DNA from: Escherichia coli
Lineage (GTDB): Bacteria; Pseudomonadota; Gammaproteobacteria; Enterobacterales; Enterobacteriaceae
Assembly (NCBI RefSeq): GCF_050920415.1
Contig: NZ_CP169309.1
DNA: 64,000 nt
Reading direction: 5' to 3' (one strand)
Shown here: piece by piece, positions 39,956 to 49,479 of the stretch
Position numbering within the stretch: position 1 is the stretch's first letter
How the letters are laid out: each line of letters starts with the position of its first letter
Position numbers and translations under genes: made by a program
Notes under the pieces: model-generated
What the model saw: the letters and a program-made list of their open reading frames with translations, nothing else
Told to the model about the DNA's origin: nothing
The model's database searches: none

Positions 39956-42238
39956 ATGTCCGAGCTTAATGAAAAGTTAGCCACAGCCTGGGAAGGTTTT
40001 ACCAAAGGTGACTGGCAGAATGAAGTAAACGTCCGTGACTTCATTCAGAAAAACTACACTCCGTACGAGGGTGACGAGTCCTTCCTGGCTGGCGCTACTG
40101 AAGCGACCACCACCCTGTGGGACAAAGTAATGGAAGGCGTTAAACTGGAAAACCGCACTCACGCGCCAGTTGACTTTGACACCGCTGTTGCTTCCACCAT
40201 CACCTCTCACGACGCTGGCTACATCAACAAAGCGTTGGAAAAAGTTGTTGGTCTGCAGACTGAAGCTCCGCTGAAACGTGCTCTTATCCCGTTCGGTGGT
40301 ATCAAAATGATCGAAGGTTCCTGCAAAGCGTACAACCGCGAACTGGACCCGATGATCAAAAAAATCTTCACTGAATACCGTAAAACTCACAACCAGGGCG
40401 TGTTCGACGTTTACACTCCGGACATCCTGCGTTGCCGTAAATCCGGTGTTCTGACCGGTCTGCCAGATGCTTATGGCCGTGGTCGTATCATCGGTGACTA
40501 CCGTCGCGTTGCGCTGTACGGTATCGACTACCTGATGAAAGACAAATACGCTCAGTTCACCTCTCTGCAGGCTGATCTGGAAAACGGCGTAAACCTGGAA
40601 CAGACTATCCGTCTGCGCGAAGAAATCGCTGAACAGCACCGCGCTCTGGGTCAGATGAAAGAAATGGCTGCGAAATACGGCTACGACATCTCTGGTCCGG
40701 CTACCAACGCTCAGGAAGCTATCCAGTGGACTTACTTCGGCTACCTGGCTGCTGTTAAGTCTCAGAACGGTGCTGCAATGTCCTTCGGTCGTACCTCCAC
40801 CTTCCTGGATGTGTACATCGAACGTGACCTGAAAGCTGGCAAGATCACCGAACAAGAAGCGCAGGAAATGGTTGACCACCTGGTCATGAAACTGCGTATG
40901 GTTCGCTTCCTGCGTACTCCGGAATACGATGAACTGTTCTCTGGCGACCCGATCTGGGCAACCGAATCTATCGGTGGTATGGGCCTCGACGGTCGTACCC
41001 TGGTTACCAAAAACAGCTTCCGTTTCCTGAACACCCTGTACACCATGGGTCCGTCTCCGGAACCGAACATGACCATTCTGTGGTCTGAAAAACTGCCGCT
41101 GAACTTCAAGAAATTCGCTGCTAAAGTGTCCATCGACACCTCTTCTCTGCAGTATGAGAACGATGACCTGATGCGTCCGGACTTCAACAACGATGACTAC
41201 GCTATCGCTTGCTGCGTAAGCCCGATGATCGTTGGTAAACAAATGCAGTTCTTCGGTGCGCGTGCAAACCTGGCGAAAACCATGCTGTACGCAATCAACG
41301 GCGGCGTTGACGAAAAACTGAAAATGCAGGTTGGTCCGAAATCTGAACCGATCAAAGGCGACGTCCTGAACTACGATGAAGTGATGGAGCGCATGGATCA
41401 CTTCATGGACTGGCTGGCTAAACAGTACATCACTGCACTGAACATCATCCACTACATGCACGACAAGTACAGCTACGAAGCCTCTCTAATGGCGCTGCAC
41501 GACCGTGACGTTATCCGCACCATGGCATGTGGTATTGCTGGTCTGTCCGTTGCTGCTGACTCCCTGTCTGCAATCAAATATGCGAAAGTTAAACCGATTC
41601 GTGACGAAGACGGTCTGGCTATCGACTTCGAAATCGAAGGCGAATACCCGCAGTTTGGTAACAACGACCCGCGTGTAGATGACCTGGCGGTTGACCTGGT
41701 AGAACGTTTCATGAAGAAAATTCAGAAACTGCACACCTACCGTGACGCAATCCCGACTCAGTCTGTTCTGACCATCACTTCTAACGTTGTGTATGGTAAG
41801 AAAACTGGTAACACCCCAGACGGTCGTCGTGCTGGCGCGCCGTTCGGACCGGGTGCTAACCCGATGCACGGTCGTGACCAGAAAGGTGCTGTAGCATCTC
41901 TGACTTCCGTTGCTAAACTGCCGTTTGCTTACGCTAAAGATGGTATCTCCTACACCTTCTCTATCGTTCCGAACGCACTGGGTAAAGACGACGAAGTTCG
42001 TAAGACCAACCTGGCTGGTCTGATGGATGGTTACTTCCACCACGAAGCATCCATCGAAGGTGGTCAGCACCTGAACGTTAACGTGATGAACCGTGAAATG
42101 CTGCTCGACGCGATGGAAAACCCGGAAAAATATCCGCAGCTGACCATCCGTGTATCTGGCTACGCAGTACGTTTCAACTCGCTGACTAAAGAACAGCAGC
42201 AGGACGTTATTACTCGTACCTTCACTCAATCTATGTAA
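39956..42238 (+). CDS. pflB: Pyruvate formate-lyase (glycyl radical enzyme)
   Basis: 760-aa ORF; C-terminal glycyl-radical motif RVSGYAVRF; N-terminus [15 protein letters not shown]. Confidence 0.97.
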
Positions 42239-42429: not shown

Positions 42430-43170
42430 ATGTCAGTTATTGGTCGCATTCACTCCTTTGAATCCTGTGGAACCGTAGACGGCCCGGGTATTCGCTTTAT
42501 CACCTTTTTCCAGGGCTGCCTGATGCGCTGCCTGTATTGTCATAACCGCGACACCTGGGACACGCATGGCGGTAAAGAAGTTACCGTTGAAGATTTGATG
42601 AAGGAAGTGGTGACCTATCGCCACTTTATGAACGCTTCCGGCGGCGGCGTTACCGCATCCGGCGGTGAAGCAATCCTGCAAGCTGAGTTTGTTCGTGACT
42701 GGTTCCGCGCCTGCAAAAAAGAAGGCATTCATACCTGTCTGGATACCAACGGTTTTGTTCGTCGTTACGATCCGGTGATTGATGAACTGCTGGAAGTAAC
42801 CGACCTGGTAATGCTCGATCTCAAACAGATGAACGACGAGATCCACCAAAATCTGGTTGGAGTTTCCAACCACCGCACGCTGGAGTTTGCTAAATATCTG
42901 GCGAATAAAAATGTGAAGGTGTGGATCCGCTACGTTGTTGTCCCAGGCTGGTCTGACGATGACGATTCAGCGCATCGCCTCGGTGAATTTACCCGTGATA
43001 TGGGCAACGTTGAGAAAATCGAGCTTCTCCCCTACCACGAGCTGGGCAAACACAAATGGGTGGCGATGGGTGAAGAATACAAACTTGATGGTGTTAAACC
43101 ACCGAAGAAAGAGACCATGGAACGCGTGAAAGGCATTCTTGAGCAGTACGGTCATAAGGTAATGTTCTAA
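42430..43170 (+). CDS. pflA: Pyruvate formate-lyase activating enzyme (radical SAM)
   Basis: ORF track 42403..43170; start chosen at the ATG at 42430 ([23 protein letters not shown]), giving 246 aa; radical-SAM CxxxCxxC ([10 protein letters not shown]). Confidence 0.95.
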
Positions 43171-43251
43171 TTTCCCCGTAAAGCGGCAACTTTATTGAGT
43201 TGCCGCTTTGTTATTCCGCGCTTCATTCTGCTACAGCGTTTTTAACACATC

Positions 43252-43842
43252 TTATAGTGCATCTACCATATCCCGTACCTGAGATAATAACGACTGATAA
43301 TAGCTCGCGTGAAGTTCTTCCCCATCGAATACCACTGTATTACACAAGAAAGTGACATCGGCATCTTCAATACCAAGATAACTGCACATATTTATCAAAT
43401 AATCGCTTATATTTTTTTCCCAGCCTATCTGGACAAATGATTCTTTGTCTCCTCCAACCAGCGCCACCCAACGAACTTTATTGAATGGTAATTTGTGCCC
43501 ATCTCCATAAGCCAGCCCATTATTCCATACTCTGTCAATATATCCTTTTAGCATTGCTGGGAAGCTGTACCACCAGAGAGGAAAAACCACCACTAACGTG
43601 TCATGTTCAAGCAGCTCTGAATAAAGCTGATGAACCTCTGGAGAATAACGTTTATCCATATTCTTCCAGTCTGGTTCATCTTCCGGCGTCATCACCGGGT
43701 TGAAATTACGCCGATATAAATCGAGTTCCGTCACCTGTATTTTCCGCTCCATTGCCCGCTGATGGATCGCATCAGCAATATGTGCGGTCAATGAATCATG
43801 ACGAGGATGGGCCCATACCAAATAAATACGTTCAGACTGCAT
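43252..43842 (-). CDS. ycaK: Flavodoxin-like-fold NAD(P)H oxidoreductase family protein YcaK
   Basis: 196-aa ORF; N-terminal pattern IYLVWAHPRHDSLT resembles NAD(P)H:quinone oxidoreductase / KefF-MdaB-like proteins (inference). Confidence 0.8.
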   Translation of the reverse strand: MQSERIYLVWAHPRHDSLTAHIADAIHQRAMERKIQVTELDLYRRNFNPVMTPEDEPDWKNMDKRYSPEVHQLYSELLEHDTLVVVFPLWWYSFPAMLKGYIDRVWNNGLAYGDGHKLPFNKVRWVALVGGDKESFVQIGWEKNISDYLINMCSYLGIEDADVTFLCNTVVFDGEELHASYYQSLLSQVRDMVDAL

Positions 43843-43941
43843 AATTTTACCTCCACGTTAAGTTCTGGAGCGCACTTTACGCAGGCGGCATCATCCTGTA
43901 AACGTGATGATTCAGGATGAGTTAATGAAGGATTTTCACTA

Positions 43942-44850
43942 ATGCGGATGAATATGTCTGACTTTGCCACTTTCTTTGCCGTGGCCCGTAATCAAAGCTT
44001 TCGTGCAGCAGGCGATGAGTTAGGCTTATCTTCGTCCGCCATTAGCCATAGTATTAAAACACTGGAACAACGTCTTAAAATTCGCTTATTCAATCGGACA
44101 ACCCGAAGCGTATCGTTAACGGAAGCGGGTTCTAATCTCTATGAACGATTGCGCCCAGCTTTCGACGAAATTCAGATCATGTTAGATGAGATGAATGATT
44201 TTCGTCTGACACCGACAGGTACGCTCAAAATCAATGCCGCCCGGGTAGCTGCACGTATATTTTTAATACCTTTACTGGTTGGTTTCACACGTGAATATCC
44301 TGATATTAAAGTCGAGCTCACAACTGACGACTCTCTTGTTGATATCGTCCAGCAGGGCTTTGACGCTGGCGTTCGACTTAGTGGCATCGTCGAAAAAGAT
44401 ATGATCAGCGTGGCGATCGGCCCGCCAGTGAAATTATGTGTAGCAGCAACGCCAGAGTACTTTGCAAGATATGGCAAACCCCGCCATCCTCATGATCTGC
44501 TTAATCATCAATGTGTTGTTTTTCGTTATCCCAGCGGCAAACCTTTCCACTGGCAATTTGCAAAGGAGCTGGAAATTGCTGTCGCAGGAAATATCATTCT
44601 GGATGATGTTGATGCTGAACTGGATGCCGTTTTGATGGGTGCTGGTATCGGGTATCTGCTCTATGAACAGATCAAGGAGTACCTTGATACCGGTCGTTTA
44701 GAATGTGTACTGGAAGACTGGATCACAGAGCGTCCAGGCTTCCAGATCTATTACCCAAACCGCCAGTATATGTCCTGCGGCTTGCGCGCATTTCTCGATT
44801 ATGTAAAAACGGGTCAGATCTGCCAGAGTCAGCGTCACCGACCACAATAA
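43942..44850 (+). CDS. ycaN: LysR-type transcriptional regulator YcaN
   Basis: 302-aa ORF; N-terminal HTH typical of LTTRs (FRAAGDELGLSSSAISHSIKTLEQRLKIRLFNRTTR); divergent from ycaK. Confidence 0.88.
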   Translation: MRMNMSDFATFFAVARNQSFRAAGDELGLSSSAISHSIKTLEQRLKIRLFNRTTRSVSLTEAGSNLYERLRPAFDEIQIMLDEMNDFRLTPTGTLKINAARVAARIFLIPLLVGFTREYPDIKVELTTDDSLVDIVQQGFDAGVRLSGIVEKDMISVAIGPPVKLCVAATPEYFARYGKPRHPHDLLNHQCVVFRYPSGKPFHWQFAKELEIAVAGNIILDDVDAELDAVLMGAGIGYLLYEQIKEYLDTGRLECVLEDWITERPGFQIYYPNRQYMSCGLRAFLDYVKTGQICQSQRHRPQ

Positions 44851-46281
44851 TTATTTGCTATTCGCTTTACGCGCCAGCAGCGGGAATATCAGCCCTAATC
44901 CCACCAGCACAAACGGCGTTGCAACATTCAGCGCCAACTGGAATGTCCACTCTGCGGTGAAGGCTTCCATTTTCGGGAAAATACCCGTCAGGCAGGCAAA
45001 AGCGGTAAAGGCAAAACACCAAATTCCGACGGTCATTGCCAGCGGCTTATTACGAATAAAGACATATTCCGGCTTATATTTCTGCGCCAGGCGAACAACT
45101 GCAATAAATGCAACAAATACCCATAAATAACGCAGCGGCATCACTACCGAGTTAAGGTTCAACAGCCATTTATAGAGATTGTTCATATCACCGATGCCGA
45201 GAGTCGGCAGCATAATCAGGATCGCCACCAGCACCAGGGTCAGAAAATAGCCATTAACGGGCGTACCAGATGCGTTGGTACGACATAAACTGGCAGGAAT
45301 ATATTTGCTGTCAGCATCGCCTAATAATACTTTAAGCGGCGCATCAATCGAGAATACCAGCGCAGCTACTTGACCCAGAGTATTCGCAATGGCGTAAATC
45401 ACCATTAAAGTATTACCCATGCTGTAATACTCGCCCAGCTTCTGGAAGGCGTAATACTGGCCGTTGGTCATTAAGTCATCGGGAATATTGCGGGAGTCAA
45501 ACATCATCCCCATTGCAAGCGATCCAAGGATCGCGCACACCGCAACCATCACCGCCAGGCATAACATCCCTTTTGGAAATTCTTTTCCTGGGTTGCGCGT
45601 TTGATTAACGTAGGGAGAAATCTTCTCTGCTCCACCAACCGCAAAGACCAGCATTGAAATAGTGGTAATGTAGGTAAAGTCGATATGAGGAATAAACGTT
45701 TCCCAGGTAATGTTTGTGGTCGCAATATGCACTTCAGTAATCGCAGGCGCGGTTACCGCCATCGCCACATACAGGAGCGACATAACAAACATCGCAATCC
45801 CTGCCACAGAACCGACGATTTTCAGCGATTTCATACCGCGTGAAGCAACCCACATAAAGAAGACAAACAGCACCAGCGTTAACCCCTGTAACGCTACGAC
45901 GGAATATTCTTTGATTAGCGAACCGTCGCCTTTCATCGCCCAACCGAGCGCAATCAGTATTGCCTGGGGTTTTTGTGCCAGATAGGGAATATGCACTACC
46001 CAGTAGGTCCACGCGGCGAGGTAAGCCAGTCCGGGTCCCATCGTGTGTTTAATCCAGGTACTGACCCCGCCCTTCCCATCTTTGAAGGTCGAGCCTAACT
46101 GACCAACAATTAGCGCATAAGGTGTGAAATAGAGCGCAAAGATAAACACCCATGAAAAAACAACCACCAGCCCCTGGTTGGCGTAGTTATTAACAACGTT
46201 GCCAAAACCCCAGACAGTGATAAAAGACATCAGCGCAATGTTGTACCATCGCAGCTGTTTTTCCTGAACATTCCCAGCCAT
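44851..46281 (-). CDS. ycaM: APC-superfamily putative amino acid / polyamine transporter YcaM
   Basis: ORF track 44851..46473; start chosen at the ATG at 46281 (MAGNVQEKQLRWYNIALMSF), giving 476 aa; about 12 TM segments. Confidence 0.82.
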   Translation of the reverse strand: MAGNVQEKQLRWYNIALMSFITVWGFGNVVNNYANQGLVVVFSWVFIFALYFTPYALIVGQLGSTFKDGKGGVSTWIKHTMGPGLAYLAAWTYWVVHIPYLAQKPQAILIALGWAMKGDGSLIKEYSVVALQGLTLVLFVFFMWVASRGMKSLKIVGSVAGIAMFVMSLLYVAMAVTAPAITEVHIATTNITWETFIPHIDFTYITTISMLVFAVGGAEKISPYVNQTRNPGKEFPKGMLCLAVMVAVCAILGSLAMGMMFDSRNIPDDLMTNGQYYAFQKLGEYYSMGNTLMVIYAIANTLGQVAALVFSIDAPLKVLLGDADSKYIPASLCRTNASGTPVNGYFLTLVLVAILIMLPTLGIGDMNNLYKWLLNLNSVVMPLRYLWVFVAFIAVVRLAQKYKPEYVFIRNKPLAMTVGIWCFAFTAFACLTGIFPKMEAFTAEWTFQLALNVATPFVLVGLGLIFPLLARKANSK

Positions 46282-46490
46282 AGACAAATCCTTCGCCAAA
46301 ATTAAAGGGGCATCTGTAAAACGAGGGATTATGCGCGGCAAATAAGAAGTGCGGAAATAGCGAAATGCAAAATTATAACCTGCTGCACATTTTATTTTGA
46401 AACGAATAAAATTTTGAAAAAAGCAAGTCAGAGAGAAGAAACAAAAAAGCAGAGTGTGAAACAGTAAGTTCACACTCTGCGTTAATTCAT

Positions 46491-47639
46491 TTACACGTGA
46501 GCAACGGGTTTCGGCGTATGACCGGCGTTGCGAAGCAGCATCAGCAAATAGATAAATGATACGCTGGCGATCATGATAAACAATAAATTATCGGAGAAAT
46601 TCTGCATTAGCATGGCAGTAAATGACGGACCAAGCAGGCTTCCCACAGTATAGCTCAACAGTAAGGCCTGGTTCATCGCCACCAGTTGATGATGTTCAAC
46701 TTTCTCGCAAGCCCATGCCATCGCCACCGGATATAGCGTAAAGCCAGCGGCACCGAGGATGAATAAAGCCGGGGCCATCGCCGCCTGGCTAAGCATCGCG
46801 ATACTGCCGAGAATGACGACAAAGACCTGAACACGCAACACCAGCAGTCGACCAAACTTATCCGCCAGACGTCCAATCGGCCATTGTCCAAGGATACCCG
46901 CACTGACCAGGACCGCCATCCAGAAACCAATGCTGGCATTGCTCACCCCTTTGTGATTGAGGTACAGCGGCATCAGGCCATATAGAGATCCCAGAACGAT
47001 TCCTGAGATAATGCAGCCATTCACGCCAAGCCGCGCCTGACGGAGTTTTAGCATTGACGTAATTGACGTCGAATCATGGTTTTCAGCCTGCTGATTCAGC
47101 ACACGCGTAAACAACAGCGGTAAGATCCCTGCCAACGTCAAACCTGTAACCCACGGCAATACGGACATCAGCTCGGTTGAAACTTTGCTGACCAGTAACT
47201 GGCCTAAAAACGTTCCCACGTAATAAACCATCATATACGCAGCAAGCAAACGACCACGGTTACGTGACGTCCCACTGCACATCAGCGCGCTCTCAACGAC
47301 CACCCAAATCATGGCACAGCCGACACCCGCTACAAAACGCCACGCCAACCAGCTCCAGAAACCAATCATCAGGCCAAGACCTGCACAGCCAGCGGCAAAA
47401 ATGAAGGAGGCCAGATAATAGCTGCGGTTAAAGCCAATGCGCTTAATGACATACCCTGTCAGCAATGTACCGACCAGGTTGCCGGTAAAATAGGATGAGC
47501 TGACAACGCCTACCTGCCATGTGGACATATGTTCCTGGGCGAGCCAAAGCGGCACGAGCGTATTTAACACTGCGATCGCCAAAGTCAACAAAAGCAGGCC
47601 AGACAGCAAAAGCATGACAGGCCGGGTATACGTGGACAT
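46491..47639 (-). CDS. ycaD: Major facilitator superfamily transporter YcaD
   Basis: 382-aa ORF, polytopic membrane protein with MFS-like organisation. Confidence 0.85.
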
Positions 47640-47953
47640 GAATTAAAACCGTGAGGAAGTTCAAATTTCATGCGCATCATGCCACCGCCAAAAACATTGT
47701 CAATGGGTGAAAATACGCGCATATCGCAGCTGAGGTATTATCGATTTATATTACTCATTCATAACGCTAATGCTGGAGAGACGATTAATCTCATCTGATT
47801 GTTTTTATTGATCTAACACAAATTTCATACGCTTCGTTCAGTCGAAAAATTTCATGGTCACAGCAAACTCATATTTCCCGTCTATGCTTTCAGAGCAATG
47901 CATCGCGTCTGACCGATTTCAGACGTACCGCTGACTCTCGAAAGGAGAAGAGG

Positions 47954-48580
47954 ATGACCAAACCGTATGTTCGTCTCGATAAAAATGATGCTGCCGTTTT
48001 GCTTGTTGATCACCAGGCTGGTTTACTTTCCCTTGTACGGGATATCGAACCCGATAAGTTTAAAAATAACGTGCTGGCGCTGGGTGATCTGGCTAAGTAT
48101 TTCAACTTATCTACTATTCTTACCACCAGTTTTGAAACCGGTCCTAACGGCCCATTAGTTCCAGAACTGAAAGCACAGTTCCCCGATGCACCTTACATTG
48201 CTCGCCCGGGAAATATTAACGCCTGGGATAACGAAGATTTTGTGAAAGCGGTAAAAGCGACAGGTAAAAAACAATTGATTATCGCTGGTGTGGTAACCGA
48301 AGTTTGCGTTGCGTTCCCGGCACTTTCGGCAATTGAAGAAGGGTTTGATGTCTTTGTCGTGACTGACGCGTCAGGGACCTTTAATGAAATTACCCGGCAT
48401 TCGGCGTGGGATCGAATGTCGCAAGCGGGTGCGCAATTGATGACATGGTTCGGCGTGGCGTGCGAGCTGCATCGCGACTGGCGTAATGATATTGAAGGAC
48501 TGGCGACGTTGTTCTCTAACCATATTCCTGATTATCGTAATTTGATGACCAGTTATGACACGTTAACGAAGCAGAAATAA
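47954..48580 (+). CDS. ycaC: Isochorismatase-family cysteine hydrolase YcaC
   Basis: 208-aa ORF; VLLVDHQAG near the N-terminus and a conserved Cys (VTEVCVAFP) typical of the isochorismatase-like family. Confidence 0.88.
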   Translation: MTKPYVRLDKNDAAVLLVDHQAGLLSLVRDIEPDKFKNNVLALGDLAKYFNLSTILTTSFETGPNGPLVPELKAQFPDAPYIARPGNINAWDNEDFVKAVKATGKKQLIIAGVVTEVCVAFPALSAIEEGFDVFVVTDASGTFNEITRHSAWDRMSQAGAQLMTWFGVACELHRDWRNDIEGLATLFSNHIPDYRNLMTSYDTLTKQK

Positions 48581-48615
48581 AAGAGAACCGGGGCCGAAAC
48601 CCCGGTTGTTACTCA

Positions 48616-49479
48616 TTAACTTGCGACGGCCATCCCCACGGTCATATGCAAACCATAGAATACGCCACGACCGATTAATTCCCCTGCCAGAAGCAGAATG
48701 AATGATACAGAAAGTAGCGGAACTGCAGGCTGATAACCTTTTAGCTGTGGGGCAATCCACAAGCACAGGGCAACAGCCAAAAGTACGATACGCCAGGACA
48801 TCAGCGCACCATAGTCCGGCACCAGCGCTGCAGCCTGCTGCACAGAGCTATGAATAGTCGCCAGCTCTGCGCCCTGCATCACTGACACCACGCCACTCAC
48901 TACCAGGGCCAGTACAGAAATAGCTGGCAGCAGACGCATCGCCCAGCCATCGACGCCAGCCAGACTCAGTAACAGGTAACCCAGTAACGGGCCGCCCATG
49001 AACATCGTCAGGAAGAAGCCCATCGGTGTCCAGATGCTGTACCAGGTGGGTACGGTATCGATGCTGTTATAAACGCGCACCATCATCCAGACAAAGACTA
49101 CGCCAAGAACCATCGTCACCACCAGCCACAGCGTACGCAGTGCTGGCGACAGCTTTTTCAGTATTGCCAGCACCCAACCGATGCCACCAACGGCAAAAAA
49201 GATCGAACCGCTGGCGATTTCGTTACTGAGTGCTGAAGCCCCTACCCGGTTGAGCGAGTTAAAAGCGCGCATCGGCGAACCAAGATGGAGCATAGAGGCG
49301 ATAAAGCCAATACCCATCAGCACCCATAAGCCAAACATACAGGCAATAACACGCTGCTGGGCTTCTGCTCGCAGGTCGCCTTTGAGCAGCGCCAAAGCCA
49401 GAACGATAAAACCACCTGCTACACATTGCCCGAAGACCGTGAAGATCATCAGCGGCCATTCATGCCATCCACTTCCCAT
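48616..49479 (-). CDS. dmsC: DMSO reductase membrane anchor subunit
   Basis: ORF track 48616..49542; start chosen at the ATG at 49479 (MGSGWHEWPLMIFTV), giving 287 aa; 8-TM type hydrophobic protein. Confidence 0.9.
   Translation of the reverse strand: MGSGWHEWPLMIFTVFGQCVAGGFIVLALALLKGDLRAEAQQRVIACMFGLWVLMGIGFIASMLHLGSPMRAFNSLNRVGASALSNEIASGSIFFAVGGIGWVLAILKKLSPALRTLWLVVTMVLGVVFVWMMVRVYNSIDTVPTWYSIWTPMGFFLTMFMGGPLLGYLLLSLAGVDGWAMRLLPAISVLALVVSGVVSVMQGAELATIHSSVQQAAALVPDYGALMSWRIVLLAVALCLWIAPQLKGYQPAVPLLSVSFILLLAGELIGRGVFYGLHMTVGMAVAS

Follow-up and report, generated by a model that had tools for sequence, protein, structure and literature searches.

Why do ycaK, ycaN, ycaM, ycaD and ycaC stand side by side on the chromosome of Escherichia coli? 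Could the five genes constitute a single uptake, detoxification or catabolic module, as a first-pass annotation of this DNA had proposed, or was the locus assembled from separate units? We set out to answer this question for a 64-kb stretch of an E. coli chromosome (the window), in which the block lies between pflA and dmsC. The best explanation, to which we assign a probability of about 0.65, is that the block is a mosaic of independent units; as part of it, the LysR-type transcriptional regulator (LTTR) YcaN would regulate its own gene and activate the divergently transcribed ycaK. This reading is carried by a conserved dyad between the two genes, by the recurrence of the pair in other genomes, and by the differing presence of the five genes in E. 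coli and Salmonella.

Coordinates derive from a listing of open reading frames (ORFs) and from the RefSeq annotation of an E. coli genome that is 100% identical. Two RefSeq genomes are 100% identical to an 8-kb query around the block, and 5,425 of 5,426 complete genomes matched this query. Listing and annotation agree in placing the five genes where the first-pass annotation had put them, and Pfam and NCBIfam bear out the families it had named; that these are annotated genes rather than a chance pattern is confirmed. From ycaK to ycaC, the strands read - + - - +.

42430-43170, plus strand: pflA, flank of the block (ORF listing and RefSeq annotation).
43252-43842, minus strand: ycaK, 196 amino acids, putative NQO1/NQO2-type flavoprotein and NAD(P)H:quinone oxidoreductase (ORF, annotation, Pfam and NCBIfam, AlphaFold model).
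43843-43941, no strand: ycaK-ycaN spacer, 99 bp between the divergent genes.
43942-44850, plus strand: ycaN, 302 amino acids, LTTR (ORF, annotation, Pfam and NCBIfam).
44851-46281, minus strand: ycaM, 476 amino acids, APC-superfamily permease; the mechanical ORF extends to 46473.
46491-47639, minus strand: ycaD, 382 amino acids, MFS transporter (ORF, annotation, Pfam and NCBIfam).
47954-48580, plus strand: ycaC, isochorismatase-family cysteine hydrolase (ORF, annotation, NF041461).
48616-49479, minus strand: dmsC, flank of the block (ORF listing and RefSeq annotation).

A conserved dyad and predicted promoter between ycaK and ycaN

If YcaN controls its divergent neighbor, where would it bind? 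We aligned the ycaK-ycaN spacer from 12 taxa and found three blocks that are conserved at fixed spacing, with no gap between them. Block 1 (ACTTTA, 43874-43879) and block 2 (TGTAAA, 43897-43902) coincide with the hexamers of a predicted ycaK promoter. Block 3, TGA-N7-TTCACTAATG, runs into the ycaN start codon and contains a candidate LysR-type box.

43874-43902, minus strand: predicted sigma-70 promoter of ycaK, with -35 TTTACA (43902-43897), a 17-nt spacer and -10 TAAAGT (43879-43874), from a consensus scan.
43922-43942, no strand: candidate LysR-type T-N11-A box, with core TGAAGGATTTTCA at 43926-43938 and extended dyad TTAATGAA/TTCACTAA.

The promoter hexamers are invariant or nearly so across the 12 taxa, and their spacing is fixed. 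Transcription of ycaK would start near 43867, about 7 nt downstream of the -10 element. The core TGAAGGATTTTCA matches T-N11-A exactly, and its TGAA/TTCA dyad is perfect. Its center (43932) lies 65 bp upstream of the predicted ycaK start, and -65 is the canonical position of a LysR recognition site in the general LTTR architecture (reviewed in PMC11495319). On the other side, the core stops 3 nt short of the ycaN ATG and the extended dyad overlaps the first base of this codon, a location that fits autorepression. The first-pass annotation had suggested looking for a T-N11-A box in this spacer; one is present, conserved, and at about -65 of a conserved ycaK promoter.

How strong is this conservation? 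The third codon positions of ycaN served as baseline, with a majority fraction of 0.62 and 4% invariant columns; the part of the spacer that forms the ycaK 5' leader gives 0.62 and 3%. The -10 block reaches 0.98 (75% invariant columns), the -35 block 0.94 (67%) and the dyad block 0.93 (65%), compared with 0.92 (67%) at the second codon positions of ycaN. By this measure, the three blocks are conserved to the same degree as second codon positions, and the dyad is under purifying selection. Within the dyad block, the arms TGA and TTCAC(TAA) are invariant across the 12 taxa and the center, which holds the Shine-Dalgarno bases, is variable; this pattern argues for a dyad-binding protein and not for a ribosome site alone. 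A more distant spacer (locus L099) has diverged, yet retains TGAGTTTCATTCA, which reads TGA-N7-TCA, at another distance from the ATG.

We searched the whole window for a second copy of the dyad, once with the 21-mer, tolerating as many as 3 mismatches, and once with the pattern of the core dyad. Neither search returned one, so that none lies upstream of ycaM, ycaD or ycaC, and additional YcaN dyads beside these three genes were dismissed. The ycaK-ycaN spacer also has a weaker inverted repeat nearer the -35 element, within which the strain of the window has ATCATC and K-12 has ATAATC; this repeat is not conserved in the other taxa.

ycaK and ycaN recur as a pair in other genomes

YcaN has the domain layout of its family, with HTH_1 (PF00126, 74 bits) at the N-terminus and LysR_substrate (PF03466, 113 bits) at the C-terminus (Pfam). 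The nearest named family is YafC, for which YcaN scores well under the cut-off. A scan of one genome per species for YcaN yielded 11 loci at the level of orthologs (59-75% identity): Limnobaculum, a strain labelled Caballeronia dw_276, Rahnella, two Cedecea, two Serratia, two strains labelled Enterobacter sp., and two Symbiopectobacterium. The other matches are LysR paralogs of 37-45% identity.

In all 11 loci, an ortholog of ycaK (50-57% identity) is divergent from ycaN across a spacer of about 100 bp. Relatives of ycaM, ycaD, ycaC, pflA and dmsC were found within 10 kb in none of them. Clustering of the flanking ORFs leaves ycaK and ycaN as the only genes common to all 11, with flanks that are otherwise unrelated. 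A third gene accompanying the cassette was considered and dismissed, as the other common flanking genes are limited to closely related genomes. The same layout is found on a metagenome contig, where a YcaK homolog (49% identity) is divergent from a LysR gene whose product is 57% identical to YcaN. Because the pair recurs divergently in 11 other Enterobacterales genomes and one metagenome contig without the other three genes, ycaK-ycaN is a two-gene cassette that moves independently of ycaM, ycaD and ycaC. The proposal that YcaN is an LTTR with ycaK as its divergent target gains from these 12 further loci, all of which keep the pair as a unit; this interpretation is well supported by the comparative evidence.

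Farther YcaK homologs (38-44% identity) lie near MerR-type regulators instead. In Symbiopectobacterium 'North America' (L013, 4714-6315), both ORFs of the pair are truncated, to 132 amino acids for ycaK and 242 for ycaN, in keeping with a cassette that is decaying in the genome of a symbiont.

Uneven distribution in E. coli

Is the block constant within E. coli itself? We counted complete E. coli genomes (n=5,426), scoring a segment as present where at least 80% of it was held. ycaD is present in 5424 genomes (99.96%) and the ycaC region in 5416 (99.8%); for ycaM the count is 4355 (80.3%), and for ycaK and ycaN together 3322 (61.2%). By near-universal presence, ycaD and ycaC qualify as core genes, and ycaM and ycaK-ycaN do not. 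The five had been described as conserved core genes and not an acquired island; this is wrong for ycaK-ycaN, absent from about 39% of the genomes, and for ycaM, absent from about 20%. The lower G+C content of ycaK, ycaN and ycaC and the Firmicutes relatives of ycaM (both given below) also count against this description. In E. coli, ycaK-ycaN is a dispensable accessory cassette.

Reading of example genomes distinguishes three haplotypes, and the shares of B and C were obtained by subtracting counts. Haplotype A is the complete block, as in the window and in K-12. The other two lack the following segments:

43227-44737, no strand: missing from haplotype B; ycaK and most of ycaN, about 19% of complete genomes.
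43213-46440, no strand: missing from haplotype C (about 20% of complete genomes); comprises ycaK, ycaN and ycaM together with the promoter region of ycaM.

In haplotype B, some 40-55 nt of unrelated sequence replace the missing segment, and the final 113 nt of ycaN persist as a pseudogene beside an intact ycaM. This remnant shows haplotype B to be a deletion derivative. Its spacer, moreover, is not homologous to the ycaM-pflA spacer of Salmonella, and haplotype B was dismissed as the ancestral state. The junction of haplotype C lies at the ycaD terminator, such that pflA is directly next to this terminator and ycaD. Strain MFDS1022581 (NZ_CP169399.1), otherwise 100% identical to the window, has its ycaK interrupted by an IS2 element and annotated as two fragments.

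The Salmonella locus and the history of the block

On the Salmonella enterica contig that we compared, the order is serS-dmsABC-ycaD-ycaM-pflA-(small ORF)-sopD-like-pflB-focA. ycaC, ycaN and ycaK were not found at the dmsC-pflA locus of this one contig, and nucleotide comparison of its 300-bp ycaM-pflA spacer revealed nothing similar to ycaN or ycaK. Salmonella YcaD is 88% identical at the protein level and occupies the same position; ycaM, at the same locus, is 83% identical. Upstream of ycaD, homology between E. coli and Salmonella reaches about 47858 and picks up again at dmsC (48616), which delimits one segment:

47859-48615, plus strand: 0.76 kb in E. coli that is missing at the Salmonella locus, the ycaC coding sequence with about 95 bp upstream.

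The G+C content of ycaK (43-44%), ycaN (45-46%) and ycaC (43-47%) is below that of ycaD (51-53%) and of the flanks (49-55%). The simplest history would start from an ancestral dmsC-ycaD-ycaM-pflA interval, to which ycaC and the ycaK-ycaN cassette were added in the Escherichia lineage. It would continue with losses in many E. coli lines, of either ycaK-ycaN or ycaK-ycaN-ycaM. Alternatively, the genes may have been lost from Salmonella instead of being gained in Escherichia.

The Salmonella ycaM (L083, 10001-11263) has an internal loss of about 155 nt, encodes 420 amino acids compared with 476, and differs at its C-terminal end. It may be a decaying copy.

Predicted separate transcription of ycaM, ycaD and ycaC

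Could ycaD and ycaM, which share a strand, at least form an operon? A strong terminator immediately past ycaD places the two genes in separate transcription units, and a ycaD-ycaM operon was dismissed. The gap between them (209 bp) is A+T-rich and has a promoter-like site inside. ycaC is divergent from ycaD, and a hairpin lies between ycaC and the convergent dmsC.

46449-46480, minus strand: intrinsic terminator that immediately follows the stop codon of ycaD, with a 12-bp stem ahead of TTTTTTGTTT.
46372-46401, minus strand: promoter-like site upstream of ycaM, TTCAAA-18-TATAAT, from a consensus scan (10/12 positions).
47676-47703, minus strand: promoter-like site of ycaD, TTGACA-16-CATGAT with an upstream TG, within a control region shared with Salmonella (about 47640-47858).
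48586-48607, no strand: hairpin between convergent ycaC and dmsC, G+C-rich and terminator-like.

By these predictions, the five genes would be served by at least five promoters, with no multi-gene operon among them.

ycaN and ycaM are convergent and their stop codons abut, with zero bases between (44848-44853). It follows that their transcripts must overlap, and ycaM-ycaN is catalogued as a convergent excludon, or transcriptional overlap (PMC12288877). We looked for a structured 3' element on the ycaM strand in the 126 nt at and just past the ycaM stop codon and found none (z = -0.44 vs shuffled sequence). The idea that the retained ycaN remnant preserves a ycaM terminator or a structured 3' end was dismissed, as the fold is no better than shuffled.

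The ycaD-ycaC spacer contains three copies of AAATTTCAT (47664-47672, 47820-47828 and 47847-47855). Two of the three lie in blocks that are conserved with Salmonella, which has neither ycaC nor ycaN at this locus. We therefore dismissed the repeats as a control element of YcaN or ycaC and attribute them to the control of ycaD; they may be sites for a regulator of that gene.

What are the two transporters? YcaD matches MFS_1 (Pfam) and PRK03633 at 730 bits (NCBIfam). YcaM matches AA_permease_2 in Pfam, and no domains except permease ones were detected. The equivalogs closest to it are YjeM (161 bits, cut-off 400) and GadC (101 bits, cut-off 640), both of which it fails by far, and its assignment is established only as far as the APC superfamily. 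YcaM homologs comprise E. coli clusters and a few proteins at 83-94% identity, two of them labelled Salmonella, after which all named ones are from Firmicutes: Paenibacillus at 70%, Brevibacillus and Clostridium at 63-68%, with no other Proteobacteria between. This distribution points to gene transfer between phyla. In Paenibacillus, the neighbors of ycaM are an ArsR-type regulator, a DUF2087 protein and an S9 peptidase, which provide no clear hint of a substrate. A bioRxiv report implicates YcaM in killing by colistin (10.1101/2025.07.07.662571). For K-12, a FliA site that does not affect expression has been published; it lies within ycaD, upstream of ycaM.

ycaC and its usual partners

Does ycaC keep company with a YcaN-like regulator elsewhere? 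E. coli YcaC scores 404 bits for NF041461 (C_hydro_YcaC), above the equivalog cut-off of 310, and its structure has been solved (1YAC, according to PMC4519933). Proteins with 87-90% amino-acid identity to it come from Marinobacter, Pigmentiphaga, Brucella, Cupriavidus, Pseudomonas, Pasteurellaceae and Erwinia. This high identity spans alpha-, beta- and gamma-proteobacteria, an unusual conservation that has been remarked on before (PMC4519933).

In Erwinia, Pseudomonas and Marinobacter, a LysR gene is divergent from an operon that contains ycaC, pirin and, often, another isochorismatase gene. The Marinobacter operon adds an ABM-domain protein and a flavin mononucleotide (FMN) reductase. The LysR regulators of the Erwinia and Pseudomonas operons score above the PRK14997 cut-off, and that of Marinobacter lies just below it (349 bits vs 380). 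Gene calls at the Brucella ycaC locus are ambiguous, with one LysR gene convergent downstream of ycaC and a long ORF, annotated as LysR, that overlaps ycaC on the other strand. The Brucella LysR neighbor is of a family different from PRK14997. The Erwinia regulator is 27% identical to YcaN and 25% identical to YhaJ; with such values, and with membership in the PRK14997 family, the LTTR beside ycaC in other bacteria was dismissed as being either of the two.

Like these operons, E. coli has a near-identical YcaC, and the Marinobacter FMN reductase belongs to the same general redox/electrophile gene set. Unlike them, E. coli has ycaC alone, without an adjacent pirin gene. By this comparison, E. 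coli ycaC is detached from its usual partners, and YcaN is not its usual regulator. In K-12, a published data set for the LacI-type regulator YcjW, obtained by ChIP-exo (exonuclease-treated chromatin immunoprecipitation), includes a fairly strong peak (signal/noise 47.8) that was assigned to ycaC.

The putative flavoprotein YcaK

YcaK is a member of Flavodoxin_2 (PF02525, 134 bits, cut-off 27) and matches PRK09739 at 351 bits (cut-off 162). Its subfamily is narrow: of 1.84 billion cluster representatives searched, 27 clusters reach E <= 1e-30, and many of these are fragments from E. coli. A sequence search of solved structures returned distant relatives alone, namely 4R81, 3LCM/4F8Y, NQO1, NQO2 and KefF (E 5e-14 to 6e-8). 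An AlphaFold model built from 43 homologs reached a pLDDT (predicted local distance difference test) of 94.6 and a pTM (predicted template modelling score) of 0.91. Its best structural match is 4R81, an NAD(P)H:quinone oxidoreductase, at a template modelling (TM) score of 0.87 and a root-mean-square deviation of 1.9 Å over the full length. NQO1/NQO2 (TM 0.75-0.82) and Smu.1420 come next. YcaK is thus confidently modelled with the fold of an NQO1/NQO2-type NAD(P)H:quinone oxidoreductase. It resembles NQO1/NQO2 and MmNQO (PDB 4R81) in Flavodoxin_2 membership and in predicted fold, but sequence identity is just 17-24%.

KefF and KefG, the ancillary subunits of glutathione-gated K+ efflux systems, also share the Flavodoxin_2 superfamily with YcaK, and KefF is itself a quinone oxidoreductase according to a citation in PMC4051601. 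YcaK scores far under both cut-offs (57.8 bits for KefF, cut-off 210; 49.3 bits for KefG, cut-off 240), and it pairs with a regulator, not with a Kef-type transporter. No gene for a Kef-type partner was found in the window or in the 12 other loci. Because of the low scores and the missing partner, a role of YcaK as transporter subunit seems unlikely.

Comparison with K-12

Relative to K-12 MG1655, the region is 98-99% identical with unchanged gene order. We considered whether the window is unusually diverged from K-12 and dismissed the idea, as four 3-kb alignments are 98-99% identical with just two 1-bp indels. Outside the block, pflB has two short clusters of substitutions relative to K-12, at about 40231-40247 and at 40547-40553, and is otherwise near-identical. 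These patches look like small tracts of recombination or gene conversion.

Discussion

How, then, may this locus work? The first unit of the mosaic would be the self-contained ycaK-ycaN cassette. YcaN most likely binds the T-N11-A dyad at 43926-43938; from this site before the ycaN start codon it would repress its own gene and, together with a small-molecule ligand, activate ycaK. As YcaK is a putative NQO1/NQO2-type flavoprotein, the output is likely the two-electron reduction of a quinone or related electrophile. ycaD and ycaM would be the second unit, separately transcribed transporter genes inherited in common with Salmonella, with ycaM later lost from about 20% of E. coli. ycaC would be the third, a separate insertion relative to Salmonella that is found elsewhere in operons with pirin under a different LTTR. 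A more specific claim, for which we see the odds as slightly better than even, is that ycaK-ycaN is a portable, self-regulated cassette for sensing and detoxifying quinones or electrophiles, gained and lost as a unit among Enterobacterales and within E. coli, with the ycaK promoter (PycaK) as the true target of YcaN through TGA-N7-TCA and with effects on the ycaC and ycaD promoters (PycaC, PycaD) being indirect.

The proposed arrangement resembles classical LTTRs with a divergent target, such as BenM-benA, CatM-catB and DntR, in domain layout, in the divergent spacer of about 100 bp and in the T-N11-A at about -65. The site likewise lies directly before the regulator's start codon, which would imply autorepression. 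The differences are that no second, activation-type site is recognizably conserved, and that published ChIP-exo did not detect the site.

Several points weigh against regulation of ycaK by YcaN. The ycaK start is predicted from sequence rather than mapped, and part of the dyad block may be conserved as the ycaN 5' leader. In a 2022 study of seven LTTRs, deletion of ycaN changed 702 genes in late exponential phase on M9 with threonine; among its neighbors, ycaC went down, ycaD and focA went up, and ycaK was not named as changed (PMC9068703). In a 2024 review, the promoters given for YcaN are PycaC and PycaD (PMC11495319). ChIP-exo of YcaN in glucose M9 gave six weak sites (signal/noise 1.06-4.45), none of them in this region (PMC8464067). 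As for the enzyme, YcaK was found in the literature solely as a member of nitroreductase candidate sets, and no report of an enzymatic activity was found, these sets included.

How much do the published data decide? In the conclusion of PMC9068703, YcaN "regulates adjacent y-genes", function unknown; the study also reported altered tnaAB, astCADBE and lsr as well as a formate-utilization phenotype. Of the YcaN ChIP-exo sites, yihQ and ynjB recur in the table of YidZ; yihQ (assigned to the adjacent yihP) also appears in the table of another regulator, as does a further peak in the yfiD-ung region (PMC8464067). This recurrence suggests hot spots. Since the sites are too weak and some coincide with peaks of other regulators, we dismissed them as a guide to YcaN targets. 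The base means of the same study's RNA sequencing are 1012 for ycaC, 397 for ycaD, 18 for ycaM, 65 for ycaN and 74 for ycaK (PMC8464067). Both the ChIP-exo and the deletion experiment were done without a candidate inducer, and the deletion shifted 702 genes; as evidence on a link between YcaN and ycaK, they are weak either way.

Could YcaN instead govern all five genes as one module, as the first-pass annotation implied and as the published claim on ycaC and ycaD would partly have it? The five are physical neighbors both in the window and in K-12, and the responses of ycaC, ycaD and focA to the deletion are what such control might produce. However, with 702 genes changed in late exponential phase these responses may be indirect, and there is no YcaN ChIP-exo peak in the region. 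Neither co-transcription nor conserved co-occurrence, the marks of a single operon or module, is seen: a terminator separates ycaD from ycaM, the only dyad of the window lies between ycaK and ycaN, the genes do not travel together to the 12 other loci, the share of E. coli genomes that have them varies by gene between 61% and 99.96%, the Salmonella locus has ycaD and ycaM alone of the five, and ycaC is paired elsewhere with a different LTTR in operons with pirin. The single module does not survive these findings, and we consider control of all five genes by YcaN quite unlikely. Slightly more room, within the range of the unlikely, is left for the view that YcaN mainly controls distant genes of threonine, formate and amino-acid metabolism, its position by ycaK being without regulatory meaning. 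The breadth of the deletion response, the formate phenotype and the fact that every reported ChIP-exo site is distant speak for it, but those sites are the weak and partly recurrent ones discussed above. The divergent pairing and its spacer of about 100 bp persist over several genera amid unrelated flanks, with a conserved dyad at the canonical LTTR position, and a gene absent from about 39% of E. coli genomes is unlikely to encode a regulator of central metabolism.

The conserved blocks themselves may be read differently, as promoter and translation signals alone, with the ycaN leader and its Shine-Dalgarno sequence in place of a regulator site. AAGGA stands 9 nt before the ATG within the dyad block, this block is directly against the start codon, and the hexamers of the ycaK promoter plausibly account for two of the three blocks. 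Yet the Shine-Dalgarno positions vary while the symmetric arms TGA and TTCAC(TAA) do not, and the L099 spacer retains TGA-N7-TCA at a different distance from the ATG, which makes this explanation very unlikely. We find it highly improbable that YcaK is an ancillary subunit of the transporter YcaM, in the way that KefF serves KefC and KefG serves KefB. The weak similarity to these two subunits (KefF being present in PDB 3eyw, E 6e-8) and a published note of a ycaN-ycaK-ycaM cluster in E. coli and Shigella (PMC9068703) agree with it. The scores, however, fall far short of the equivalog cut-offs, YcaM is an APC permease without a detected Kef-type domain to which KefF could bind, and the best structural matches of YcaK are soluble quinone reductases. 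Furthermore, the cassette occurs without ycaM in the 12 other loci, and about 19% of E. coli retain ycaM without ycaK. A mosaic of independent units, with YcaN acting on its own gene and on ycaK, remains the explanation that we prefer.

The biology that emerges is ordinary, an uncharacterized example of a very common regulatory layout, and the outcome is a modest refinement of y-gene annotation. The correction it implies is that the conserved partner of YcaN is ycaK, rather than the ycaC or ycaD of the reviews. As ycaK, ycaN and ycaM are accessory in E. coli, natural deletion strains exist for comparison of phenotypes. The analysis narrows the question to one site of 13 bp, one promoter and one gene pair, and it predicts quinones or electrophiles as the class of inducer. 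If true, YcaN and PycaK would constitute a ready-made orthogonal biosensor pair, for which the ligand could be screened directly.

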